This document shows, piece after piece, positions 2,873 through 38,135 of a stretch of DNA of 64,000 nucleotides (position 1 is the first letter of the stretch; the number at the start of each line of letters is the position of its first letter). Position numbers and translations under genes: made by a program. The notes below the pieces were generated by a model. That model had not been told where the DNA came from. It made no database searches and worked only from the letters and a program-made list of their open reading frames with translations. Source of the DNA: Candidatus Komeilibacteria bacterium (lineage in GTDB: Bacteria; Patescibacteriota; Patescibacteriia; UBA1558); assembly GCA_048538235.1 (NCBI GenBank), contig JBLYPX010000001.1:521015-585014 (forward strand), in the 5' to 3' direction.

Positions 2873-5530
2873 TTAATTACTTATTAAAACTCTTTTATGT
2901 CGAGCTATAAATATATATTTAATTAACTCTATTAATAATATTACTACTAAACTTGCGCCCAATACTATTCCCCATTCCATCATATTTAAAGCTGTAGTTC
3001 TTAATATTCTCTGAAAGAAAGGAATATAGAGCGCTAATAATTGTACCATAAACCCTCCAACAACTGCTAGTATTAAAAATTTATTAGCAAAAAAACCTTT
3101 ATGTAAAATGGAATGTCTTAAAGATCTGCAACTGAATACATATAGTAATGAATCTACTCCCAAGGTGGCAAAGACAAGCGATCTAGCTAAACTAAGATCT
3201 CCAGTATGAGTATAGTATAGGTGGAAGATAATTAAACTAGATATAGCCGTTACCAAAGAAATGGTAGCAATTAGTATATTTCGTTCTGCGTCTAAGATTG
3301 GTTTTTGTCTTTCTTGAGGCGGTTCTTGCATTATTTCTTTCTCTTCTGGTTCAACCGTTAATGCCATATTAGGAAAACCGTCTGTTACTAAATTAATCCA
3401 AAGTATTTGAGCTGGTAATAAAGGTAATGGCCAGCCTAGTATTAAACTACCCATAATTAATAAAACTTCTGAGAATGAATCAGAAAGGAGATATAGTATT
3501 ACTTTTTTAATATTGTCATATATTACCCTACCTTGTTCTATAGCAGCAGCTATGGCTGAGTAATTATTATTCATTAAAACAAGATCAGCTGTTTCTTTAG
3601 CAATATCTGTACCTGAACCTAGGGCTACGCCAATATCTGCCTGTTTTAAGGCTGGCGCATCATTAATGCCATCACCAGTCATAGCCACAACTTCACCGTG
3701 ACTTTGCAAGGCTTTAACTATTCTTAATTTATCGTGTGGAGATACGCGGGCGTATATAACTATTTTTTTAACAACTTTAGCTAAATCAATATCGCTCATA
3801 CTAAGCATATCTTTTCCTTCAATAATGGCATCTCTGCCAATCTTTAATCCCAAGTCTTCAGCAATAGCCTTAGCTGTCTCTTTATTATCCCCTGTTATTA
3901 TTATTGTTTTAACACCAGCTTTACCTATTAAATGCAATGTTCTTTTAGTATCTGGTCTTAATGGATCTTTCATGGCTAAAAAGCCAACAATGGTCAAATC
4001 TTGTAATGCTGTTTCTAAGTTTAACTCTAATCCTAGTTTTTCTTCCCTGTAAGCTACTGCTACAACTCTTAATTTCTTTTTAGCAAGCTTAGAAAGCTTT
4101 GCCTTTAATTCTTTTTTAACCTTAGGTGTTAATTTAATAGCTACACCACTCTTTTCTACTTTAGTGGCTGCTTCTAAAATATATTCTGGAGCACCCTTTA
4201 AATATATTATCTTCTTTGTTTTAGATAATTTATGGGCTGTAGCCATAAATTTATTAGATGAATCAAAAGGTATCTCAGCAATACGTGGCAAATCCTTTTC
4301 TAAGATCTTTCTTTGTAAGCCAATTTGTGATCCGGCAAGCAGTAATGCTTTTTCTGTAGCAGAACCTATTGGCCTTCCTTCTCTGTCAAACTCTGCGTCA
4401 TTACACATAATAGCTGCCTTTAAAGTTGAGAAAACAGATAAAGATGAATCTACTTTTTTCTTTTTTGTATTTGTAAAATCAAACTCTTCATTAGCTGTAG
4501 CAATATGCACAACTCTCATCTCACCCTCTGTTAATGTTCCTGTTTTATCTGTACAAATAACTGTTGTACTACCTAATGTTTCAGCGGCTACTAATTTTTT
4601 AACTAAAGCTTTCTTTTTTAATACTCTTTGCATACCAATAGCTAGTATTACTGTAACAGCTACGGCTAACCCTTCTGGAATAGCAGCGACTGCAATAGCT
4701 ACGGCTGTATTAAACATTAGAACCAAATCATTACCATAAAAAGCACCAATGCCAAAAATTGCTAAGCAAATAAATAGTATTATTAAACCTAATTTACGAC
4801 TAAACTTATTTAACTTTTTCTGTAAAGGAGTTTCTTCATCTTCAGTGTCTTTAAGAAGTTTTGCTATTTTACCAATCTCTGTATTTATACCAGTAGCTAC
4901 TATAACTGCCTTACCAACACCGCGAGACACTAAAGTGCTCATGTATACCATATTCTTTCTATCTGCTAGCGCTAATCCTGTAGACATTCTATCTATACTT
5001 TTATTAACTGGGGCAGACTCGCCTGTTAAAGCAGCTTCTTCAACCTCTAAATCGTATGCTTCAATAAGTCTAGCATCAGCTGGTATTCTATCTCCGGCTT
5101 TTAAGAAAATAATATCTCCTGGTACAAGTTCTGCAGCAGATATCTCCTTTTTACCACCATCTCTTAACACTAAAGCTTTAGCAACGATAACAGACTGTAA
5201 TTTTTGCAAAGCTTTCTGAGCCTTACCTTCTTGTATAAACCCAATAATTACATTTAGAAAAACAGCTACAAAAATAATATATGCATCAATATGTTCTCCT
5301 AAAAACATACTAACAATACCTGCTATTAGCAAAATATATATTAATGCACTTTTAAACTGATTAAAAAAGATAGCCACTCTTGTTAACCTTTTACCCCTGG
5401 GTAAAGAGTTGCTACCAATTACTTTTAGTCTTTTTTTAGCTTCTGAGGTGCTTAAACCATCAACACTACTGTGTAAACGATTGAATACAACCTTTATTCC
5501 AAAGCTGTGCCAAGTAATATTATTATTCAT
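2873..5530 (-). CDS. cation-transporting P-type ATPase (P2-type, Ca2+/Mg2+-ATPase-like)
   Basis: 885 aa with DKTGTLT phosphorylation motif, TGES actuator motif, TGDN and GDGINDAPAL hinge motifs, and about 10 TM segments. Confidence 0.9.
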   Translation of the reverse strand: MNNNITWHSFGIKVVFNRLHSSVDGLSTSEAKKRLKVIGSNSLPRGKRLTRVAIFFNQFKSALIYILLIAGIVSMFLGEHIDAYIIFVAVFLNVIIGFIQEGKAQKALQKLQSVIVAKALVLRDGGKKEISAAELVPGDIIFLKAGDRIPADARLIEAYDLEVEEAALTGESAPVNKSIDRMSTGLALADRKNMVYMSTLVSRGVGKAVIVATGINTEIGKIAKLLKDTEDEETPLQKKLNKFSRKLGLIILFICLAIFGIGAFYGNDLVLMFNTAVAIAVAAIPEGLAVAVTVILAIGMQRVLKKKALVKKLVAAETLGSTTVICTDKTGTLTEGEMRVVHIATANEEFDFTNTKKKKVDSSLSVFSTLKAAIMCNDAEFDREGRPIGSATEKALLLAGSQIGLQRKILEKDLPRIAEIPFDSSNKFMATAHKLSKTKKIIYLKGAPEYILEAATKVEKSGVAIKLTPKVKKELKAKLSKLAKKKLRVVAVAYREEKLGLELNLETALQDLTIVGFLAMKDPLRPDTKRTLHLIGKAGVKTIIITGDNKETAKAIAEDLGLKIGRDAIIEGKDMLSMSDIDLAKVVKKIVIYARVSPHDKLRIVKALQSHGEVVAMTGDGINDAPALKQADIGVALGSGTDIAKETADLVLMNNNYSAIAAAIEQGRVIYDNIKKVILYLLSDSFSEVLLIMGSLILGWPLPLLPAQILWINLVTDGFPNMALTVEPEEKEIMQEPPQERQKPILDAERNILIATISLVTAISSLIIFHLYYTHTGDLSLARSLVFATLGVDSLLYVFSCRSLRHSILHKGFFANKFLILAVVGGFMVQLLALYIPFFQRILRTTALNMMEWGIVLGASLVVILLIELIKYIFIARHKRVLISN

Positions 5531-28607: not shown

Positions 28608-29060
28608 TTATTCAGCACTAGCTTCTGTAGAAGCCTTAGCTCCTTTTTTATCTAAACGCGCTCCATATAATGAACGACTTTGTTTTCGACCTTCTACTCC
28701 TTGGGTGTCATAGACACCACGAACCACATGATAACGAACACCAGCAAGATCTCTAACACGACCACCACGAAGTAGTACAATAGAGTGTTCTTGTAAATTG
28801 TGTCCTTCACCAGGAATATATGCTGTTACTTCCATACCATTAGATAGTCTAACTCTAGCAATCTTACGTAAAGCTGAGTTAGGTTTCTTTGGGGTAGTTG
28901 TAGTAACTTTAACACATACGCCACGTTTAAAAGGAGCGCCTTCTGGATGGTTATCTCTTTTTCTCTTTAAAGCATTAAGAGTATAACGCAAGCCAGGAGC
29001 TTTCGCTTTCTTTTTCTTAGACTTTCTTGGATTTTTTAACAATTGATTTGTTGTAGGCAT
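28608..29060 (-). CDS. rpsL: 30S ribosomal protein S12 with a short C-terminal extension
   Basis: [13 protein letters not shown]...[10 protein letters not shown] core. Extra C-terminal [17 protein letters not shown]. Confidence 0.9.
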
Positions 29061-29100
29061 ATTCTTTAGTTAAAATTATATAATTAAATTATTTATAAAA

Positions 29101-29129
29101 TAAAAAATAACTATCCGAAAGAAATAGTT
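29101..29129 (-). terminator. hairpin plus U-tract about 45 nt upstream of rpsL (terminator of the M50 protease gene and/or leader attenuator)
   Basis: aactat-ccgaaagaa-atagtt followed on the minus strand by auuuuuua. A second perfect hairpin tcacata-tag-tatgtga lies at 29135-29151. Confidence 0.4.
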
Positions 29130-29203
29130 ATCAGTCACATATAGTATGTGATTAAATCCTACTCTACCTCACAAAGGATGGCAGATTCTATTCGGACGAC
29201 AGT

Positions 29204-29232
29204 ATAGTAACACGCTAGCTAAAAAACGTCAA
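29204..29232 (-). promoter_or_regulatory. promoter-like element (TTGACG-17 bp-TACTAT, minus strand) immediately after the M50 gene stop, giving a roughly 135-nt structured leader for rpsL
   Basis: Minus-strand -35 at 29232-29227, -10 at 29209-29204. Confidence 0.4.
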
Positions 29233-29235
29233 TAC

Positions 29236-29865
29236 CTAAACCAGACTATATATCATATTAACGAAAAACCCTATTATTCTACCAAAAATACCTAGCCCTA
29301 AAAAAGAATCTGCTATTAATAGTATTAATAAAAGCCAAGGCCCTTGTTGGCTTAAAAACACCTTAATATTATTATATTTAGCTGGTAATACATCAAATAA
29401 AAACTTTGAACCATCAAGTGGAGGTATAGGAATAAGATTAAATATCATTAAAACAGTATTTACTATTATTAAGGAAATTAAAAAAGCAGGTAAAAGAGTG
29501 GTAAACAAAAACGGTGAAATAACTGAAAGAATCTTCAATATTATAAAAAATACAATAGCACTGATTAAATTAGCTAGTGGTCCAGCTAAAGAAACTATAG
29601 TATTCCCCCACTTTTTGTTCTTAAAGTTGGCAGGATTTACAGGTACTGGCTTAGCCCAACCAATAACCAATGGACTGCCAGATAAAATAAGCATAGCCGG
29701 CAAAAGGATAGTACCAAAAGTATCCATGTGAGGAATTGGGTTTAAAGTAAGTCTATTATTTAATTTAGCTGTCACATCACCTTGTTTATACGCTGCTAGA
29801 GCATGAGAGAATTCATGCACAACAATTGCGTATAAAACTGACAATATTTGTATAATAACTAGCAT
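29236..29865 (-). CDS. site-2 protease family zinc metalloprotease (peptidase M50)
   Basis: 209 aa polytopic membrane protein with HEFSHA (HExxH) in the first TM region and a downstream LDGS-like motif (PPLDGSKF). Confidence 0.75.
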   Translation of the reverse strand: MLVIIQILSVLYAIVVHEFSHALAAYKQGDVTAKLNNRLTLNPIPHMDTFGTILLPAMLILSGSPLVIGWAKPVPVNPANFKNKKWGNTIVSLAGPLANLISAIVFFIILKILSVISPFLFTTLLPAFLISLIIVNTVLMIFNLIPIPPLDGSKFLFDVLPAKYNNIKVFLSQQGPWLLLILLIADSFLGLGIFGRIIGFFVNMIYSLV

Positions 29866-29936
29866 CTTGACTAATAATGTAAATTATATTAAACTGTATT
29901 CACTATTATACTAAAATATCTATTAAATACAACAAT

Positions 29937-30104
29937 ATGGCCAAAGTATGTGAAGTCTGCAAGCGCGGAACAACATCTGGACAAACAAAAAGTCACTCTC
30001 AAATCAAGACCAAGCGTCAGGTTAAAATAAATTTACAGACAAAGGTTGTAGATGGCAAGAGAATCAAGATTTGTACCAAGTGCATAAAGACTATGAATAA
30101 ATAA
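29937..30104 (+). CDS. rpmB: 50S ribosomal protein L28 (zinc-ribbon type), below the ORF-track size cut-off
   Basis: Manual translation gives MAKVCEVCKRGTTSGQTKSHSQIKTKRQVKINLQTKVVDGKRIKICTKCIKTMNK (55 aa), matching the L28 consensus MAKVCEVCGK..GN.VSHSN.KTKR..NLQ...CT.C. Confidence 0.8.
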   Translation: MAKVCEVCKRGTTSGQTKSHSQIKTKRQVKINLQTKVVDGKRIKICTKCIKTMNK

Positions 30105-30114
30105 ATTTTATACT

Positions 30115-30145
30115 AAAAAAGCTCCTAGACGACTAGGAGCTTTTT
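30115..30145. terminator. bidirectional terminator after rpmB (also serves the convergent gene 30161-30751)
   Basis: aaaaa-gctcctag-acga-ctaggagc-ttttt. Confidence 0.6.
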
Positions 30146-30160
30146 ATTTTATATATTTAC

Positions 30161-30751
30161 TTATTCTAGAACAAATTCTACATTATCATCCCCTACAATA
30201 ATATCCTGAAGTTTAATATCATTACTAAAAAAGAAATCAGATAAAAACTCTAATTGATCAAACAATAATCTCCCTACTAAAGAGCCCGGAATAAATAGCC
30301 CTTTATACCTAGCCTTTGTAACATGAAAATATAATTGTTGCTCCATAGCCTCTATTCTAACCTCAATATATGCATTACCCTTGATTGGTTTTAAAGCATA
30401 ACCTTCTAATACAAACTTATTATCTTTTAAACTTAACTTAACATCTTGAATTGGTGGATTAGAATATTTTTTTAATTGCTCTTGTAAAATATAGTTAAGC
30501 TCAGCTACTGAAATATTTGTGTACTCATTATTTGCTGCAACCAAAGATAAATCATTTTCACTATACGCTTCCAACCACATTGCTAATTTATCTTCTGCAT
30601 TTAACTTTTGTTGTGAAGTTAACTCCTCAACAGCAACCACTTCATTATTGTCGTTATTTCTCCACCATAATAGATCTGAAAAAGAAAATGCATATGAAGT
30701 ATTTGGAATAATAAGCACAACCAGCATAATTATTAATAATAGTTTTTTCAT
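30161..30751 (-). CDS. hypothetical secreted protein
   Basis: 196 aa with N-terminal signal peptide MKKLLLIIMLVVLIIPNTSYA. No recognised domain. Confidence 0.5.
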   Translation of the reverse strand: MKKLLLIIMLVVLIIPNTSYAFSFSDLLWWRNNDNNEVVAVEELTSQQKLNAEDKLAMWLEAYSENDLSLVAANNEYTNISVAELNYILQEQLKKYSNPPIQDVKLSLKDNKFVLEGYALKPIKGNAYIEVRIEAMEQQLYFHVTKARYKGLFIPGSLVGRLLFDQLEFLSDFFFSNDIKLQDIIVGDDNVEFVLE

Positions 30752-30807
30752 AAAATCTAGGTAAAATAATTAATATTTCTATCATCATTATACCAAAATT
30801 AAAGTAA

Positions 30808-31057
30808 TTAAAAAACCACTACATAATGTAGTGATTTTTCAAGTTCTAGTCAGCTTGACTGAAGATTGGAAGTTCCGATAGCCATCCGGGCAGTCTCTCA
30901 ATCATAAGACAATTAAAAGTTTAACACCTTAATTACTCAGTACCGAAAAACTATAATGCCGCTGGGCGTCCTAGAATACGAACCAAGGTCCATATTTCAC
31001 ACAAACTCCCTAATAAAGTAAGGTTGTAGAAATTCAATCTGTCAAAGTGACTAGAAC
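30808..31057 (-). ncRNA. candidate small RNA (unclassified, roughly 250 nt) with near-consensus promoter, long 5'/3' closing helix and intrinsic terminator
   Basis: Minus-strand promoter TTGACG-16-TATAAT. 5' end GUUCUAGUCACUUUGAC pairs with 3' GUCAAGCUGACUAGAAC. The helix extends by AGAUUG/CAAUCU. Terminator CACUACA-UUA-UGUAGUG plus GUUUUUU. No ORF. GC above flanks. Confidence 0.5.
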
Positions 31058-31063
31058 ACTTTA

Positions 31064-31091
31064 ATTATATCACTACAATTATTCCCGTCAA
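31064..31091 (-). promoter_or_regulatory. near-consensus sigma70 promoter (TTGACG-16 bp-TATAAT) for sRNA candidate B
   Basis: Minus-strand -35 at 31091-31086, -10 at 31069-31064, predicted TSS about 31057. Confidence 0.55.
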
Positions 31092-31142
31092 ATGTAAAAA
31101 AACAACTAAATTTCATAATTAATAATATTGGCTAAGATAAAA

Positions 31143-31169
31143 CAAAAACCCCGCTTCTATAAAGCGGGG
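31143..31169 (-). terminator. rho-independent terminator after ndk
   Basis: ccccgctt-ctata-aagcgggg, followed on the minus strand by uuuuuguuuu. Confidence 0.6.
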
Positions 31170-31183
31170 CATTAAATATCTAA

Positions 31184-31648
31184 TTATTTTTCATCATCTG
31201 CATATACCCATTTCCAATCGTCTTTCTCATAAGTAAATATTTCATCTTCCTTAAAAAATCTCTTAATTTCAGCTTCAGCTGCTTCTGCAGAATCTGAAGC
31301 ATGCACAATATTATTTGAATGACTCATAGAAAAATCTCCGCGAATAGAACCTGAGTCAGCTTTACGACCCACTGTCGGACCAACAATAACCCTTACAGCG
31401 TCAATAGCATCATAACCTTCAATAGCGATAAATATTACTGGTGCCGATTGCATAAAACCTTTTAGTCCTGTAAAGAATGGCTTATCTTTGTGATGACTAT
31501 AGTGTTCATCTATTTGTTCATCTGAAATACGGCCCATCTTTAGACCTGCAATTTTTAATCCTTTGTTTTCAAAACGTTTAATAATCTCACCCAATAGATT
31601 GCGTTGCAAACAATCTGGTTTGAGAATAATAAGACTTTTCTCCATCAT
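31184..31648 (-). CDS. ndk: nucleoside diphosphate kinase
   Basis: 154 aa with the active-site His context NIVHASDS and ILKPD-like N-terminus. Confidence 0.9.
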   Translation of the reverse strand: MMEKSLIILKPDCLQRNLLGEIIKRFENKGLKIAGLKMGRISDEQIDEHYSHHKDKPFFTGLKGFMQSAPVIFIAIEGYDAIDAVRVIVGPTVGRKADSGSIRGDFSMSHSNNIVHASDSAEAAEAEIKRFFKEDEIFTYEKDDWKWVYADDEK

Positions 31649-31650
31649 AA

Positions 31651-32022
31651 TTATTTTTTAAAATGTTTATTAATTTTAATAACTAGTTCTCCTGGTGTCA
31701 TATCTGCTTTTACAAAATAACCAACAGCTCCTAACTCCTTACCCTTAGCCGTATCTTCTTCTTGACCCAAATTTGTAAGCATATATACAGGAATATTCTT
31801 AGTGAACTCATCCGACTTAATTTCCTCCAAGACAATAAAGCCATCTTTCTTTGGCATAATAATATCTAATAACACCAAATCTGGTTTAAGACTCTTTGTT
31901 AGCTGAACTCCAGTCTCACCATCCCTAGCTACTTCAACTTCATAGCCAGCTTTAACCAATTTTAGCTTATACATATTAGCCAAAATTTCTTCATCTTCAA
32001 TTAATAGAATTTTTTTTGCCAT
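31651..32022 (-). CDS. stand-alone response regulator receiver domain (CheY-like)
   Basis: 123 aa, acidic pocket DEE...D (LLDIIMPKKDG) and conserved T/K positions. No output domain. Confidence 0.8.
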   Translation of the reverse strand: MAKKILLIEDEEILANMYKLKLVKAGYEVEVARDGETGVQLTKSLKPDLVLLDIIMPKKDGFIVLEEIKSDEFTKNIPVYMLTNLGQEEDTAKGKELGAVGYFVKADMTPGELVIKINKHFKK

Positions 32023-32075
32023 AAATATATCTTAATAATGTTTGTATTATAGCCTAATATTTTATGATTTACAAG

Positions 32076-32924
32076 TTATTTTAGCCAATAATTATATCCA
32101 TCTGTATTAATAACAATATCTCCCAAATTATCGTTTCTTAGTATTCTAATACCCAATTTCTCCAATCTTTTAATAATCCTTAAATGTGGATGTTTAAATT
32201 TATTATCTACACCAGACTGAATAACTGCTGTACTAGCATTAACAGCTTTTAACCAATCCTCACTATTTGAATATTGACTGCCATGATGAGCAACTTTCAA
32301 TATATCTGCACTCACATCTTGACCGCTTACCAGGATCTTTTCCTCCACATCTATAGTTGCGTCCCCTGTTAACAAAACACACACCTCAATATAACAATAT
32401 TTAGCAACCACTGAAGTATCATTCACATCATCTGCTTTCTGACCCACATACTCTTCAAAAGGATATACAATCTCTAAACTTGAATTTTTGAACGTATATA
32501 TATCTCCAGCAATCGTTGACTCTAAAGTAAAACTATTATCTTCAATTAATTGCAACCACTCTAAATATGACGCCGCCATATAATCTATATACCCGGGAAA
32601 CAATATTAAATTGACAGAATATCTTTTTAAAACTTCATTTAAGCCACTAACATGATCATCATGCGCGTGGGTTAAAATCATTAAATCTATACTTTTGTCA
32701 TAAAAAGATAAATATGGCCCCAACTTACTTATTAAATAATTACCTGGGCCACCATCTATTAATATTCTTTCCTTATCTGGTGTAATAATTAATATTGCGT
32801 CTCCTTGACCAATGTCTAAAAATACAATCTTGGCAATATTATCAGTATCTGTTTGTAAATAAACAATAATTAAACTTAAAGCTATGCCAATAATTACAAA
32901 TATATATTTTCTATACTTTTTCAT
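32076..32924 (-). CDS. comEC: ComEC C-terminal metallo-beta-lactamase domain protein (probably the 3' portion of a frameshift-split comEC)
   Basis: TM segment, then FLDIGQGDAILI...IDGG and HAHDDHVSGL (HxHxDH) MBL motifs. Confidence 0.7.
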   Translation of the reverse strand: MKKYRKYIFVIIGIALSLIIVYLQTDTDNIAKIVFLDIGQGDAILIITPDKERILIDGGPGNYLISKLGPYLSFYDKSIDLMILTHAHDDHVSGLNEVLKRYSVNLILFPGYIDYMAASYLEWLQLIEDNSFTLESTIAGDIYTFKNSSLEIVYPFEEYVGQKADDVNDTSVVAKYCYIEVCVLLTGDATIDVEEKILVSGQDVSADILKVAHHGSQYSNSEDWLKAVNASTAVIQSGVDNKFKHPHLRIIKRLEKLGIRILRNDNLGDIVINTDGYNYWLK

Positions 32925-34461
32925 TTGATCTAAATTTAATAAAAAATATACAAGAGTATATAAAGAAAATATATAACCAATTTATCTTTGGCAATTCAAT
33001 GGCTGCTAATGGTAGTGATCCCAACCAATTAACAATTTCTATTTGTTTATTTAACATGCCATAAACTATCCAAAATAAAGGAACAGATATGGTTGGAATT
33101 AATAAGTTTAATATTATTCCAACAATAGATAAACACATTAACAGTGGTAAGGTTGGCAATAATAATATATTGGCAATAGGAAAAACAAGAGAAGCTTGGT
33201 TAAATTTAAACACGATCCACGGCAATGTTAATATCTGAGCTGCAAAGGTTGCTTGCAAAATTGCTTTAATACCAAATAATACTGGTAATCTTTTAAATAA
33301 CTTTCCCACATCATCTGAAAATAGAACCAGGCTTAAAACCGCTAAAAAAGATAATTGCCAACCAATATCATAAACAAGTAATTTTGGATTAAACATAAGG
33401 GTAATAATTGCTACCAATATTAATGCAAAATAACTTTTGTTAACTCTACCAAAATAATCTGCAATTAATAATACTGATCCCATCATTCCTGCTCTAATTG
33501 CTGAAGCGGGCATTCCAATCATTAATATATACATAAATAATATTAAAAGAGCTATGGGGTAAGTTAATTTTTTTGGTAAATAAAAAGCAGTCAAAACTCT
33601 AACTAATAATAATGAAATAATAGATACATGCATTCCAGATATAGCTAATAAATGTGATACACCCGCTTTACTGAAATTATCTACAATATCTGTTGGAATA
33701 CTTCTCCTTCTCGCTAAAAGCATTGCAGATAATATACTAGCCTCTGGTTCAACTATATTTTTTTGAATAACTTGATGTACTCTATCTTTAAAATCTACAA
33801 TTTTTCTCTTTAAAATATATTTATCTGCTAAACCAATATATTTAACTATGGGGCTATAGCACAAAGAGTAAATATCATATCTAGATAAATAATCATCATA
33901 AGCAAAATCTTCAATTTTATCAGGCTTAATTAGTTTACAATCTAGTTCTAGTTCATCTCCTACAAAATATTCAGGGTATAAAGAAGACTTTACTAATACA
34001 AGACCATTCACATTATGCCAGATATTATCTACGTATATACCCTCCGCTTTAACTGTTAGTTTATTATGGTCAACACGTTTATCCACCTCATTAACCACAC
34101 CTCTAAAATGTAAATCCTTCATGTCTGACCAGTCTGCAGCTATATTATTGTAAAAAGCTATATGATTAGAATTAATCACAGGAAAAGAATAAATAAATCT
34201 AATATATCCAGCTAATATACTAAATATAATTAATAAAAATAATATTATTTTTTTGTTCTTAGAAAATAATACAAACAAAGGAATAAATAATAGTAATACA
34301 AGCCAACTAATATGAATAGAAAAAACATTAGCTATAATAATGCCAATTATGAACATGAAACTATAAATAATAAACAATTTTTGACTCATACTTGACTTAA
34401 TTATCAATACCGTGTAAATTAAATAATTATCTGAACATTCAACCCAAAACGCGTTAAACAA
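32911..34461 (-). CDS. comEC: ComEC/Rec2 competence channel protein, N-terminal DUF4131 plus Competence domain (lacks the MBL domain)
   Basis: 516 aa polytopic membrane protein. Its end overlaps the next ORF by 14 nt in the +1 frame at an A5 run. Confidence 0.75.
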   Translation of the reverse strand: MFNAFWVECSDNYLIYTVLIIKSSMSQKLFIIYSFMFIIGIIIANVFSIHISWLVLLLFIPLFVLFSKNKKIILFLLIIFSILAGYIRFIYSFPVINSNHIAFYNNIAADWSDMKDLHFRGVVNEVDKRVDHNKLTVKAEGIYVDNIWHNVNGLVLVKSSLYPEYFVGDELELDCKLIKPDKIEDFAYDDYLSRYDIYSLCYSPIVKYIGLADKYILKRKIVDFKDRVHQVIQKNIVEPEASILSAMLLARRRSIPTDIVDNFSKAGVSHLLAISGMHVSIISLLLVRVLTAFYLPKKLTYPIALLILFMYILMIGMPASAIRAGMMGSVLLIADYFGRVNKSYFALILVAIITLMFNPKLLVYDIGWQLSFLAVLSLVLFSDDVGKLFKRLPVLFGIKAILQATFAAQILTLPWIVFKFNQASLVFPIANILLLPTLPLLMCLSIVGIILNLLIPTISVPLFWIVYGMLNKQIEIVNWLGSLPLAAIELPKINWLYIFFIYSCIFFIKFRSNEKV

Positions 34462-34472
34462 AAGGAGAACTT

Positions 34473-34814
34473 ATGACGCAATCATCTTTAGCTACCAAGC
34501 AGGAAGGTAGATTCGAATTTAAACACGCTGGTGAAATACTCACTGGCAGAGTAGAAAAGGACAAAAGGTCGCCAGACTTTAATCTCCTACCAGGACCTGG
34601 AGAGCCATTAGACAGCAGACGCTTTCTCAAAATGGCTTCTTCTGTAAACAATAGCCCTCACTCGGAAAAGGTAAAGATCCACGTAATTCCAAATCACTCA
34701 AGTGAAAACGGAGATAAATGGAGAGTTACCTTTGAAGCACGTAACGGAGGAGACGCTTTAGAGTTTGTGCAAAAACATCTGCACAATGTTATAAAAATTG
34801 AAATGAAAGATTAA
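34473..34814 (+). CDS. hypothetical protein on a compositionally atypical (about 42% GC) mini-island
   Basis: 113 aa ORF with strong SD (aaaaggagaactt-ATG), followed by a UUCG-tetraloop terminator. It is the only plus-strand gene in a long minus-strand block, with C/G-ending codon usage unlike its neighbours. Confidence 0.5.
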   Translation: MTQSSLATKQEGRFEFKHAGEILTGRVEKDKRSPDFNLLPGPGEPLDSRRFLKMASSVNNSPHSEKVKIHVIPNHSSENGDKWRVTFEARNGGDALEFVQKHLHNVIKIEMKD

Positions 34815-34830
34815 CGCACCTTTCATCCAA

Positions 34831-34860
34831 GCCCCGTTTTTCGAAACGGGGTTTTGTTTT
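34831..34860 (+). terminator. rho-independent terminator with UUCG tetraloop (ccccgttt-ttcg-aaacgggg plus ttttgtttt)
   Basis: Perfect 8-bp GC-rich stem and a 9-nt T-tract. Confidence 0.65.
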
Positions 34861-34927
34861 ACACAAAAAAAGGGCTCATCGAGCTAAGCTCAACGACCCT
34901 GTTAAATAATAACTTACAACCAACAGA

Positions 34928-35362
34928 TTATCTTGTCAACAAAATCTTTATGCTTGTTCTTAATTTATCTGTAGATAGTTTTAGACCCCAAACTACACCA
35001 AAAAATAATCCAACTGTATCTATTCCAATATCTACTACCGATGCATTTCTACCAGGAATAAAACTTTGATGAATTTCATCAGATATTGCATACAAAATTC
35101 CTAAGAAAAAAGCTAATAATAATAGTCCAGCAAACACAAATTGATTATCTTCTTTGCTCCACTTCTTATAGCCTAATAATAATTTAACTAATAATAGTCC
35201 AAGCACAGCATAGACAAATATGTGTGCTGATTTTTTAAATAATATATCCCACAAACCAGACAAGCCAACGTTTAAAACTGACCGATTAGACAAAAGCCAA
35301 ATTAAGCTCATCCAGGCTGCTGCAAAAATTCCATATTTAAAATTATGCCAAGCTATTTTCAT
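34928..35362 (-). CDS. VanZ-like family membrane protein (second paralog in the window)
   Basis: DEIHQSFIPGRNASVVDIGIDTVGLFFG matches the VanZ signature. Four TM segments. Confidence 0.65.
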   Translation of the reverse strand: MKIAWHNFKYGIFAAAWMSLIWLLSNRSVLNVGLSGLWDILFKKSAHIFVYAVLGLLLVKLLLGYKKWSKEDNQFVFAGLLLLAFFLGILYAISDEIHQSFIPGRNASVVDIGIDTVGLFFGVVWGLKLSTDKLRTSIKILLTR

Positions 35363-36450
35363 TTACTTTGTTTATGGTGTAAATAATCTTCAATAAAATC
35401 ATCTATATCCCCATTAAGAACTTTATCTGGATCTTTAACTTCAAAATTAGTTCGATGATCTTTTACCATTTTATATGGATGAAGAACATATGATCTTATC
35501 TGATTACCCCAGGCAGCCTCAGTAATTTCACCTTGCAATTTCTTCCTTTCCTCTTCTGCTTCAACTTCTTGCAGTCTTTGCAAACGACTTTTTAAATGTT
35601 TCATAGCCGCTTCTCTATTCTGAGCCTGAGATCTTTCATTTTGGCATGTAACCATAATGTTGGTTGGTAAATGGACTATACGTACTGCTGAATCTGTTGT
35701 ATTTACCCCCTGACCTCCTTTACCGGATGATTTAAATGTATCTATACGTAAATCTTTATCCTCTATTTTTACTTCTATCTCATCATCTTCAAGTTCTGGC
35801 AAAACATCTACCATTGCAAACGAAGTATGTCTAGCATGATCTGCATCAAATGGAGATAAACGTACTAAACGATGAACACCTGACTCACCCTGCAATTGAC
35901 CATATGCATATTTACCAATAACTTCAATTACTACAGATTTATAACCAGCTTCAGAACCCCTGCTTTCATCTAAGATATTCACTTGCCAATTCTTTTTCTC
36001 AGCTAATCTTAGATACATTCTTAATAGCATAGCAGCCCAATCCTGTGCTTCATCGCCACCAGCACCTGAGTATATACTAACAATAGCATTATCTTGATCG
36101 TGAGAACCATTAAATAGTGTTAAAAATTCAAACGAATTGTATATATTATTTAACTGTTTAAACCTAGCCTCTATTTCTTCTTTTAATTCTTTAGCATCAG
36201 ACAATGCTATAATATCTTTTAATTCTTTAATGCCATTTTTTAACTCATTCCAGTCGTTTACTTCTGAACTTAAATCTGACAATTCTTTATTAACAGCACC
36301 TGCTTTTTTATTATCCTGCCAAAAATCTTCTGACTTTGTTTTTTCAGCCAGACTATTTATTATTTTTTGTTTGTCTTGAATATTAAGAATCGACTCAAGC
36401 TTGGCAACCTTATCTACTAATTCATTAGCTTTAGCTATTATTTCTTTCAT
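35359..36450 (-). CDS. prfB: peptide chain release factor 2 (single ORF, no programmed frameshift)
   Basis: SPF tripeptide (RLSPFDA) specific to RF2 and GGQ motif (KSSGKGGQGVNTTDSA). N-terminus contiguous in one frame. Confidence 0.9.
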   Translation of the reverse strand: MKEIIAKANELVDKVAKLESILNIQDKQKIINSLAEKTKSEDFWQDNKKAGAVNKELSDLSSEVNDWNELKNGIKELKDIIALSDAKELKEEIEARFKQLNNIYNSFEFLTLFNGSHDQDNAIVSIYSGAGGDEAQDWAAMLLRMYLRLAEKKNWQVNILDESRGSEAGYKSVVIEVIGKYAYGQLQGESGVHRLVRLSPFDADHARHTSFAMVDVLPELEDDEIEVKIEDKDLRIDTFKSSGKGGQGVNTTDSAVRIVHLPTNIMVTCQNERSQAQNREAAMKHLKSRLQRLQEVEAEEERKKLQGEITEAAWGNQIRSYVLHPYKMVKDHRTNFEVKDPDKVLNGDIDDFIEDYLHHKQSK

Positions 36451-37790
36451 TAATCTTTATATTCAACTAGAGTTACATTAATTATTTTTTCTTCTCCCCT
36501 GTGATACACCTTAAGTTTAATTGTATCATCTGGACCATATTCTGCTATTTTAGCGGCTAATGTTTTATCTGTGGTTAATTTCTCATCATCTATTTCTAAA
36601 ATAATATCATTCTCTACAAGACCGGCTTTATCTGCTGGACTACCAGGCATTACTGCTAATTCTGTCTGATCTTGACCCCGTATTATTAAAGCACCATAAT
36701 CTACATCTAAATTATTTTGTTTAGCAATAGCCTCATTTATCATAGTATAGCGTATACCCAAGAATGGTCTTACAATCTTACCATATTTTTGTACACTACC
36801 TACAACTTTCTTAGCTGTATTTATTGGTATAGCAAAACCTATTAATTGACCTTCTCTATTAACAGCTGTATTAATACCAATTACCTCACCATCTAAATTA
36901 ATCAAAGGTCCGCCAGAATTACCGGGATTAATAGCAGCATCTGTTTGTATAACATTGTCTAATTTTTCTGAAGAACTATATGTACCAGCTACAATATCTC
37001 TACCGAGCCCAGATACAATACCAGTTGTAACTGTATTACTATATTCTCCTAATGCATAACCAATAGCAACAACTGTTTCTCCAATATTAATATTATCTGA
37101 ATCACCCAAATCTATTGTTGGAAAGTCTTCTCCTTCAATTTGTAGAACTGCTAAGTCGTTTATAGCGTCAGCGCCTAAAAAGGTTGCGTCATATGATGTA
37201 CCATCCGCCATTATTACTTGGTATTCAGAATCTCCATCTGTTGCAACATGTTTATTGGTTAAAATAATACCATCAGAAGATATAATAAAGCCAGTGCCAG
37301 CACCAACCTGTTGCTTTTCTGTTTTTGGCTCTTGTGGCTCTTGTTGTGGCATGTCAAAAGAAAAAGGCCAGCCAGAACCAAAGAAATCTTCAAATGGGAA
37401 TAATGATCCTGTTTGATTATAATATTGTGTGATTTCCCTACTAACTATAATAGAAACAACTGCTGGGCTAGCATTCTCCACCACCTCTTCAACAGATAAT
37501 TTACTTTTCTGTTTAACCGGAGGTGTATAATTTTCCTTAGATTCAGTAATATCTTTCGAATTGTCTGAAGAATCAGCTAATTGAAACCAATCACCTGAAT
37601 TAGATAATTGACTAGCTACATAACCAGTCATACCGCCAACAAAGGCGCTTATAGCTACAGATATAATTACTACAAAAATAAGTAATTCTAAACTGTAGAG
37701 TTTTTTACTTGTTTTTTTAGTACTTTCTAACATATAATTTTTATTAATTTTACTAATAAATATTATAAAATGTAATAAAAAAACATTCAA
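36450..37790 (-). CDS. htrA: HtrA/DegP-family trypsin-like serine protease with C-terminal PDZ domain
   Basis: N-terminal TM anchor. Catalytic His (TNKHVATDG), Asp and Ser (GNSGGPLINLDGEVIGINTA). Confidence 0.85.
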   Translation of the reverse strand: MNVFLLHFIIFISKINKNYMLESTKKTSKKLYSLELLIFVVIISVAISAFVGGMTGYVASQLSNSGDWFQLADSSDNSKDITESKENYTPPVKQKSKLSVEEVVENASPAVVSIIVSREITQYYNQTGSLFPFEDFFGSGWPFSFDMPQQEPQEPKTEKQQVGAGTGFIISSDGIILTNKHVATDGDSEYQVIMADGTSYDATFLGADAINDLAVLQIEGEDFPTIDLGDSDNINIGETVVAIGYALGEYSNTVTTGIVSGLGRDIVAGTYSSSEKLDNVIQTDAAINPGNSGGPLINLDGEVIGINTAVNREGQLIGFAIPINTAKKVVGSVQKYGKIVRPFLGIRYTMINEAIAKQNNLDVDYGALIIRGQDQTELAVMPGSPADKAGLVENDIILEIDDEKLTTDKTLAAKIAEYGPDDTIKLKVYHRGEEKIINVTLVEYKD

Positions 37791-37820
37791 ATATAAATTG
37801 AATGCCTCTTTATTAACTTA

Positions 37821-38135
37821 TCACTTATATAAATCCAGTATCTGTTGATACTGTTCAAACATACCATTTAAACCAGAACCAGCTGCATCTGTAGGCGCAC
37901 CTGAAAAACCTCCCAAACCTGAAAAGAAACCACTTAACATTGAAGGTAAATATACAATACCTAATATTATTGGAATAAGAATAAACAATAACTGTATAGC
38001 AGCCATTATTCTTCCCCAGAAAATATATTTTTTAACCTTAAGGCTCAAATGATATATTTCCTTAGAATATTCAATATTTTCCTCCATCAATTTCTTTAGC
38101 TGTTCTTCCATTGATGCTCCAGCATAATTTGTCAT
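37821..38135 (-). CDS. hypothetical small membrane protein
   Basis: 104 aa with one or two TM helices and a Gly-rich C-terminal region. Confidence 0.4.
   Translation of the reverse strand: MTNYAGASMEEQLKKLMEENIEYSKEIYHLSLKVKKYIFWGRIMAAIQLLFILIPIILGIVYLPSMLSGFFSGLGGFSGAPTDAAGSGLNGMFEQYQQILDLYK

Follow-up and report, generated by a model that had tools for sequence, protein, structure and literature searches.

The question raised by this locus is whether comEC of a Candidatus Komeilibacteria genome is divided into two genuine genes, or is a single gene that merely looks broken at a run of five adenines (A5). The original prediction, made on the window (the whole stretch of 64,000 nt that was analysed), had offered as possible answers an indel introduced in sequencing or assembly, a frameshift that recently turned the gene into a pseudogene, phase variation and a genuine two-gene arrangement, and its coordinates, sequence, +1 frame, 14-nt overlap and A5 run were all confirmed on re-reading. 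The minus-strand sequence of the junction is TTT AGA TCA AAT GAA AAA GTA TAG (F R S N E K V stop), where the first open reading frame (ORF1, DUF4131 plus Competence) terminates at the TAG of positions 32913–32911, and the second (ORF2, metallo-beta-lactamase, MBL), lying in the +1 frame relative to ORF1, starts at the ATG of positions 32924–32922 (M K K Y R K Y) and ends at 32076. Removal of one A from the run gives N E K Y R K Y as read from the sequence, and a collinear ComEC does result, as had been proposed. The length of this hypothetical fusion was revised from about 795 aa to about 770 aa, because the annotated channel product starts at an ATG and has 492 aa; the longest form of ORF1 (516 aa) starts with a TTG and reaches 34461, the annotated ATG lying 24 codons downstream of the TTG, and the ATG form is likely to be the actual product. 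The GenBank annotation of the locus also carries two proteins, of 492 and 282 aa, from Candidatus Komeilibacteria, as shown in Table 1. No Shine-Dalgarno motif was detected before ORF2 or at any of the seven gene starts in the neighbourhood, so its absence before ORF2 is uninformative on independent initiation.

Table 1. Coordinates in the window of the two comEC genes, their overlap and the genes downstream.
Feature	Position	Strand	Description
comEC channel gene	32911..34386	-	492 aa from ATG at 34386; product identical to NCBI MFW0862534.1
MBL gene	32076..32924	-	282 aa; product identical to NCBI MFW0862533.1
Gene overlap	32911..32924	-	14 nt, from channel stop to MBL start; A5 at 32917-32921 inside
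Receiver-only response regulator (RR)	31651..32022	-	123 aa; next gene downstream of the MBL gene, same strand
Nucleoside diphosphate kinase (NDK)	31184..31648	-	154 aa; final gene of the conserved comEC-MBL-RR-NDK run

The two open reading frames correspond to different portions of ComEC. ORF1 carries N-terminal transmembrane helices and a putative OB fold (DUF4131) in addition to the Competence transmembrane domain, and its residues 139–474 align to residues 140–478 of the solved ComEC 30bt_A (E 3.5e-26). The domain calls of the original prediction held for Competence (PF03772, 171.6 bits against a cut-off of 23, E 2.9e-50) and for Lactamase_B in ORF2 (PF00753, 54.5 bits), whereas the DUF4131/OB-fold match of 27.2 bits lies below the cut-off of 31.6; the precomputed Pfam list of the identical protein P0001 includes PF13567. 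Against the 663 positions of TIGR00361 (ComEC_Rec2, cut-off 190 bits), ORF1 covers positions 121–370 (80.6 bits) and ORF2 covers positions 421–661 (133.5 bits, E 6.9e-39), each under the cut-off, and the MBL domain is not carried on the same polypeptide as in the canonical three-domain form that this equivalog describes. Residues 9–279 of ORF2 align to residues 514–791 of 30bt_A (E 1.4e-33), and ORF2 also matches the crystal chain of the ComEC C-terminal domain, 9ic4_A (E 8.2e-34). The metal-binding motif of ComEC-type MBL domains is HxHxDH or HxDxDH with downstream Asp/His residues (PMC12455585); in ORF2 the motif HAHDDH occupies residues 86–91, and H86, D90, H91, D188, H213, H214 and H245 are invariant among the seven sequences of alignment A1. 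The AF2 single-sequence model of ORF2 (mean pLDDT 43, pTM 0.35) was too poor for a fold search. Judging from these homologies, ORF2 is probably a membrane-anchored, ComEC-type MBL nuclease subunit.

The break falls in the charged loop just ahead of the last transmembrane helix of the solved ComEC, and both ORFs are full length relative to that structure. ORF1 ends with a K/R-rich tail (FFIKFRSNEKV), while ORF2 starts with MKKYRK and contains a single hydrophobic segment (about residues 3–27), followed by the MBL domain; in the alignment with 30bt_A, this N-terminal helix falls on the last helix of the structure. The in-silico fusion of the two is collinear with a fused ComEC from Chloroflexota, the junction lying in the charged inter-helix loop of that protein. 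The positively charged loop that links the two final helices is presumably cytoplasmic, and by the positive-inside rule the MBL domain of ORF2 is predicted to lie on the outer face of the membrane.

The comparison with related genomes, which had been proposed as a check, recovered the same split with independent starts many times. Relatives at 33–69% identity have separate channel and MBL genes, with junctions that range from a 37-nt overlap to a 2.8-kb gap, and the gene neighbourhoods of the close relatives are all two-gene with differing junctions. The overlap is 17 nt in loci L001, L002 and L009, which come from three independent datasets, and 4 nt on the P0032 contig; a 53-nt spacer separates the two genes in L004; and the two halves are separated by an opposite-strand 104-aa gene in L003 and L005, by a 140-aa gene in L006 and by an opposite-strand 390-aa FBPase gene in L007. 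The order comEC-MBL-RR-NDK is kept in L001, L003, L005 and the P0032 contig. The window and its closest relative (L001/L009) both overlap in +1, and a one-base deletion would fuse either. When the in-silico fusion was used as the query, the matches from 67% down to about 32% identity were all DUF4131 plus Competence proteins of 437–544 aa without an MBL domain, the source-named ones belonging to Komeilibacteria, Parcubacteria and other Patescibacteria, with one exception labelled Nitrospirota; fused proteins of about 800 aa surfaced only at about 30% identity, and the source-named ones are from Chloroflexota.

In a survey with one genome scanned per species, the 80 best MBL relatives were sorted by channel-gene context (14 of the survey loci are titled 'Gammaproteobacteria', titles that are unverified). 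The MBL gene was not fused to a complete channel gene in 73 of the 80, and the seven fused cases were all from Chloroflexota. Split loci with a same-strand channel gene upstream accounted for 33, with the two genes overlapping (15 loci), within 10 nt of each other (3), at 39–201 nt (7) or at 0.4–2.8 kb (8). The other 40 loci have no complete channel gene, and comprise one truncated fused-type gene (L079) and 39 standalone MBL genes, with stop-to-stop ORFs of 236–339 aa and no channel gene within up to 4 kb. All split MBL proteins start with Met, followed by K/R residues and then a hydrophobic helix, and all channel proteins end in a K/R-rich tail. A rough neighbour-joining tree, calculated without support values, grouped all fused MBL domains into a single cluster that contained none of the split or standalone ones.

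These observations bear on the possibility that the true genome has four adenines, with comEC as one fused gene of about 770 aa, a possibility that suits a homopolymer, as homopolymers are often sites of sequencing error, where a one-base deletion restores a collinear ComEC in a genome known from a single assembly on record. It is nevertheless very improbable: a single intact ORF across the junction was not found in any patescibacterial relative examined, the fusion is reported in only six CPR genomes in the literature, and in the nearest relative, in all three independent datasets, the genes likewise overlap in +1, over another length and with another sequence. Moreover, the Met-K/R-transmembrane start of ORF2 shares an alignment column with the independent starts of relatives whose halves are separated by spacers or genes, which argues against a fusion, because nothing would maintain a start codon at this point within a fused gene. 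A recent pseudogenising frameshift of a once-fused comEC, which would account for the two-ORF appearance and for a junction at a mutable homopolymer, has a nearly negligible probability, since the split is common to lineages down to about 33% identity and hence ancient, ORF2 has a proper start, a signal-anchor helix and catalytic residues conserved throughout the alignment, and neither ORF is shortened. The locus is therefore regarded, with high confidence, as a genuine and evolutionarily old two-gene ComEC, consisting of a channel gene and a nuclease-subunit gene, of the kind typical of Patescibacteria (CPR), where a two-gene comEC is nothing unusual. Published work has already recorded that CPR essentially lack the ComEC-MBL fusion (Meheust et al. 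2019, PMC6744442).

The A5 run itself does not exceed chance expectation. The window has a G+C content of 32.7% and 419 A/T runs of at least five (6.5 per kb), and about 7.4% of all its 15-nt windows contain such a run; the A5 at the junction belongs to the Lys codons (AAA AAG) of the positively charged loop, and at this density of A5/T5 runs it is an incidental by-product of lysine codons in an AT-rich genome. Phase variation, programmed +1 frameshifting or transcriptional slippage at A5, which would yield a mixture of split and fused ComEC, could draw on the A-rich A AAA AAG context, where tRNA-Lys could in principle re-pair in +1, and on the A5 run that is also found in the overlap of the nearest relative. 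Appreciable slippage, however, needs runs of about 7–9 nt or more, far longer than five adenines, the A site has no slow codon, and no stimulator is located upstream. A scan of positions 29000–38000 against Rfam at gathering thresholds gave no match and therefore no frameshift-stimulating or other known RNA near the junction, and no shared slippery or shift motif was present among the 15 overlapping junctions of the relatives. A fused product is also impossible in many relatives, because spacers or intervening genes separate the halves, and an on/off switch is not expected, because both the split and the fused forms would presumably work. Slippage or switching of this sort is accordingly hardly credible. 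Homopolymer frameshift pseudogenes and phase-variable loci resemble the present locus in that two ORFs in different frames overlap across a homopolymer; they differ from it in that the run here is only 5 nt, the split is conserved, the junctions are varied, and the downstream start and anchor are conserved. None of the three explanations by indel, pseudogenisation or phase variation is thus supported, as the relatives are split and their MBL genes have their own starts, and the two-gene option of the original prediction was borne out by the separate genes and varied junctions of the relatives.

With two genuine genes, gene 1 would encode the DNA channel subunit (OB fold plus Competence transmembrane domain), and gene 2 an MBL nuclease on the outer face of the membrane, anchored by a helix homologous to the one that comes last in single-chain ComEC. 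Because the genes overlap by 14 nt, co-transcription is almost certain and translational coupling is possible. The two proteins may assemble in the membrane and so rebuild the usual ComEC architecture, in which the channel subunit would import one DNA strand and the MBL subunit would degrade the other. It is also conceivable that the split is genuine and the MBL protein acts independently of ComEC, for instance as a membrane-bound extracellular nuclease or hydrolase for nucleotide scavenging. The 39 loci of the 80 with the MBL gene away from any channel gene would fit such a role, CPR bacteria are thought to scavenge nucleotides (PMC6744442), and the NDK gene is a conserved neighbour. Against it, the MBL protein finds its best matches among ComEC C-terminal domains and not among other MBL families, the homologue of the last transmembrane helix of ComEC is retained, an adjoining same-strand channel gene is present in 33 of the loci, with overlap in nearly half of these, and complex partners can still come from unlinked genes; an independent role is considered unlikely. 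For the split comEC as a whole, we lean slightly towards the hypothesis that patescibacterial ComEC is an obligate two-subunit translocase, in which the gene was split at the base of the phylum or close to it, so that the nuclease came away together with the last helix, and the parts reassemble in the membrane.

If the two-subunit translocase is true, many of the Lactamase_B 'losses' counted in domain-profile surveys would be fissions, and the question called open by Silale et al. (2021), namely by what route bacteria whose ComEC has no C-terminal domain break down the non-transforming strand, would be answered for Patescibacteria. A ComEC that seemingly has no nuclease domain may obtain its nuclease in trans from a membrane-anchored partner, which bears on the counting of ComEC domain gains and losses as well as on DNA uptake in Patescibacteria, some of which are now genetically tractable via natural competence (PMC10633639); the requirement of comEC for transformation has been shown only in a cultured Saccharibacterium (PMC10633639), not in the Komeilibacteria lineage. 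In annotating Patescibacteria, a comEC-N ORF and an MBL ORF that overlap should be left as they stand, without merging the two, marking them as pseudogenes or 'correcting' a homopolymer.

Among the known systems, ORF1, a DUF4131 plus Competence protein of about 490 aa in a CPR genome, is of exactly the same kind as the unfused ComEC of CPR and the 'DC-profile' ComEC proteins, which have no MBL domain (Pimentel & Zhang 2018, PMC6299819). Both PMC6299819 and PMC6744442 treat the MBL domain as absent or lost, whereas here and in many relatives it is a separate gene, often immediately downstream; no mention of a separately encoded MBL partner gene was found in the ComEC and CPR literature searched. 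Single-chain ComEC/Rec2, such as Bacillus subtilis ComEC, the solved chains 30bt_A and 9vc6_A and the TIGR00361 model, has the order DUF4131-Competence-Lactamase_B, and the same three domains appear to be present here, homologous and collinear, with intact MBL metal-binding motifs, and one DNA strand is likewise predicted to be imported while the other is degraded; unlike in single-chain ComEC/Rec2, the nuclease domain forms a protein of its own, which has a start codon and a membrane anchor. The nuclease EndA belongs to a different nuclease family and is not known to have the MBL fold. In Streptococcus pneumoniae, EndA is likewise a separate membrane-bound nuclease that acts with the ComEC channel and degrades the non-transforming strand (PMC8579336), but ORF2, unlike EndA, is the detached C-terminal domain of ComEC itself.

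The original prediction held that comEC is split at an A5 run, through a frameshift or as two genes, and its description of the junction was borne out: ORF1, the channel gene, ends at 32911 (minus strand ...TTT AGA TCA AAT GAA AAA GTA TAG), the start of ORF2, the metallo-beta-lactamase (MBL) gene, and the A5 run lie as listed in the table, and deletion of one A yields ...SNEKYRKY... and a collinear fusion. The ORF1 size of 516 aa holds for the maximal TTG-started ORF and not for the annotated product (492 aa), which starts 24 codons further in. ORF1 matches Competence (PF03772) at 171.6 bits and DUF4131, below the threshold, at 27.2 bits, ORF2 contains Lactamase_B (54.5 bits), and the two products correspond to positions 121-370 and 421-661, respectively, of the 663 positions of NCBIfam TIGR00361 (ComEC_Rec2). 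They are identical to GenBank MFW0862534.1 (492 aa) and MFW0862533.1 (282 aa), both named 'ComEC/Rec2 family competence protein' and encoded on a single contig (860,445 bp) of a MAG assigned to Candidatus Komeilibacteria (Patescibacteria/CPR); as these are exact matches to two separate proteins, the depositor's annotation already has two genes. The homopolymer is nothing special: the G+C of the window is 32.7%, A or T runs 5 nt or longer number 419 (6.5 per kb), such a run is present in about 7.4% of 15-nt windows, and the A5 belongs to two lysine codons (AAA AAG) within a Lys/Arg-rich stretch.

Coordinates of features at the comEC locus and in its relatives, with channel-gene identity and channel-MBL arrangement
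Feature	Coordinates (strand)	Channel identity	Arrangement or remark
Window, channel gene (ORF1)	32911..34386 (-)
Window, MBL gene (ORF2)	32076..32924 (-)		ATG 32924-32922, +1 frame, 14-nt overlap with ORF1
Window, A5 run	32917-32921
Window, MBL, receiver-only response regulator and NDK genes	31184-32924 (-)
Window, prfB	35359-36450 (-)		uninterrupted 363-aa ORF; overlaps start of downstream VanZ-like gene by 4 nt
Window, between VanZ-like and channel genes	34390-34927		538 nt, open ORFs on both strands
Window, open ORF	34454-34651 (-)
Window, open ORF	34473-34814 (+)		113 aa, no known domain, divergent from channel gene
L001, L002 and L009 (3 independent datasets)		67%	17-nt overlap, likewise +1 frame
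L004		60%	53-nt spacer
L003		59%	opposite-strand 104-aa gene between halves, gap 393 nt
L005		54%	opposite-strand 104-aa gene between halves, gap 385 nt
L006		36%	140-aa gene between halves
L008		36%	MBL gene absent from 4 kb downstream
P0032 contig		35%	4-nt overlap
L007		33%	opposite-strand 390-aa FBPase gene between halves
L079 (Anaerolineales MAG)	3554-4858 (+)		435-aa ORF: last ~105 channel-profile positions and MBL domain
L010	1745-2044 (+)		second, partial MBL fragment (profile positions 9-94), ~2 kb upstream of full MBL gene

When the in-silico ORF1+ORF2 fusion (770 aa) was used to query about 5.8 billion proteins, the matches at identities between 67% and about 32% were all 437-544 aa long, covered the first 47-64% of the query and exhibited DUF4131 and Competence, with an MBL domain in none. 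Those with a named source were from Komeilibacteria, Parcubacteria, Uhrbacteria, Buchananbacteria, Falkowbacteria, Nealsonbacteria, generic Patescibacteria and unclassified bacteria, with one labelled Nitrospirota, and full-length fused proteins (about 800 aa) were observed only at about 30% identity, the source-named ones being Chloroflexota. The relatives' loci are likewise split with independent starts, and display varied junctions, spacers and intervening genes. Komeilibacteria-like relatives keep the gene order prfB-VanZ-comEC(N)-MBL-response regulator-NDK throughout. The junction of the closest loci (L001, L002 and L009) is unlike that of the window (...SYVKKQ(stop) / MLKSSKY...), and fusion by a single-base change is impossible in L003 to L007, so the split is older than the divergence of these lineages. 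The comEC of the window is thus a genuine ancestral two-gene arrangement, and the frameshift-type readings are rejected, as the relatives are split, the boundaries are conserved and a shift site is not shared. An assembly indel or a recent pseudogenisation of a fused comEC would make this genome a rarity, as the ComEC-MBL fusion is 'essentially absent' from its phylum (PMC6744442), and neither explains an ATG and signal anchor exactly where the independent genes of relatives start.

Several further features were observed around the locus. Many bacteria have a prfB with a +1 programmed frameshift; that of the window is without one. No Rfam family was detected at gathering thresholds within 34390-34927. 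Small ORFs (104-123 aa) homologous to the 113-aa ORF occur in L001, L003, L004 and L005, lying between the channel and MBL genes and not upstream in L003 and L005, and these differing positions indicate that the gene has moved about the comEC locus. The MBL, response regulator and NDK genes follow in the same order in L001, L003 and L005, and DNA uptake may be linked to nucleotide salvage, though this is speculative.

The MBL protein profile was scanned against one genome per species (GTDB), the best 80 loci were retained, and these were classified by HMMs of both halves on stop-to-stop ORFs. Fused genes (753-842 aa) were found in 7 of the 80, all in Anaerolineae, Dehalococcoidia or Chloroflexi, and 33 were split, the MBL gene being preceded on its own strand by the channel gene, including 15 overlapping by 4-37 nt and 3, 7 and 8 with gaps of 1-8 nt, 39-201 nt and 0.4-2.8 kb, respectively, where starts are estimates taken from the ATG closest to the projected profile start. 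A complete channel gene was absent from the other 40, 34 of which had 2.5 kb or more of sequence available upstream; 39 of the 40 hold standalone MBL genes (stop-to-stop ORFs of 236-339 aa). The remaining one, L079, appears to be a fused comEC that has been truncated or broken, its N-terminal channel part was not found within 3.5 kb upstream, and its MBL groups with the fused clade. All MBL proteins begin with Met, Lys/Arg and a hydrophobic helix, and every channel protein has a Lys/Arg-rich C-terminal tail. In a rough neighbour-joining tree of MBL domains without support values, and so only indicative, the fused forms make one cluster that includes no split or standalone sequence. Phase variation or programmed frameshifting at the A5 is unsupported, as the run is short, a conserved shift site is absent and a fused product is impossible in many relatives; comparison of the overlapping junctions found no common sequence motif. 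Fourteen survey loci whose MBL genes are split or standalone as in Patescibacteria (L012, L015, L021, L026, L030, L035, L041, L043, L052, L059, L066, L068, L080 and L087) come from 'binchicken' TPA MAGs with the title 'uncultured Gammaproteobacteria', a label that looks doubtful.

The break was located on known ComEC chains. ORF1 residues 139-474 match residues 140-478 of the solved full-length chain 30bt_A (E 3.5e-26), ORF2 residues 9-279 match its residues 514-791 (E 1.4e-33), and ORF2 residues 31-279 match the crystallised C-terminal domain 9ic4_A (E 8.2e-34). The fused Chloroflexota ComEC P0012 (31% identity) and the in-silico fusion align over their full lengths, and the junction falls in a charged loop of P0012 between two hydrophobic stretches; the final hydrophobic segment of ORF1 lies at residues 466-484 and the single one of ORF2 at residues 3-27, indicating that the last transmembrane helix of ComEC is kept by the nuclease subunit as a signal anchor. 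Positive residues flank the break on both sides, which under the positive-inside rule would place the loop in the cytoplasm and the MBL domain outside it, where the ComEC C-terminal domain has been reported to lie (PMC8579336). The metal-binding motifs of ORF2 (HAHDDH at residues 86-91; D188, H213/H214 and H245, invariant in seven relatives) are intact and agree with the one reported for the nuclease domain of ComEC (PMC12455585).

Both genes have conserved independent boundaries, their products are homologous to the matching ComEC parts, and the genes are often adjacent on the same strand. That the MBL protein functions independently of ComEC seems improbable but retains some weight, as the MBL gene is unlinked from the channel gene in half of the survey loci. 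The 14-nt overlap points to co-transcription and possibly translational coupling. Under the two-subunit reading, the two proteins would reassemble in the membrane with the MBL domain beside the OB fold (the DUF4131 part) over the channel, where one strand would be broken down as the other is imported. No Shine-Dalgarno-like motif was found within 30 nt upstream of seven gene starts (30751-36480), the regions being AT-rich, and its absence before ORF2 is therefore uninformative on coupling. A 2025 NAR study reported that the ComEC nuclease performs better in vitro with the OB fold on the same chain (PMC12455585), so the split form, too, probably requires close association.

The unfused state of CPR ComEC has been published (PMC6744442) and 'DUF4131+Competence only' ComEC is a recognised class (PMC6299819), so the locus is ordinary for its lineage. 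The nuclease domain has been regarded as absent or lost in such proteins (PMC6299819, PMC6744442), Silale et al. left strand degradation open where ComEC is without it (PMC8579336), and the ComEC/CPR literature searched does not mention a separately encoded, membrane-anchored MBL partner, which the NCBI name of the 282-aa protein implicitly recognises. Compared with these systems, only the reading as a two-subunit ComEC derived by gene fission is mildly new.
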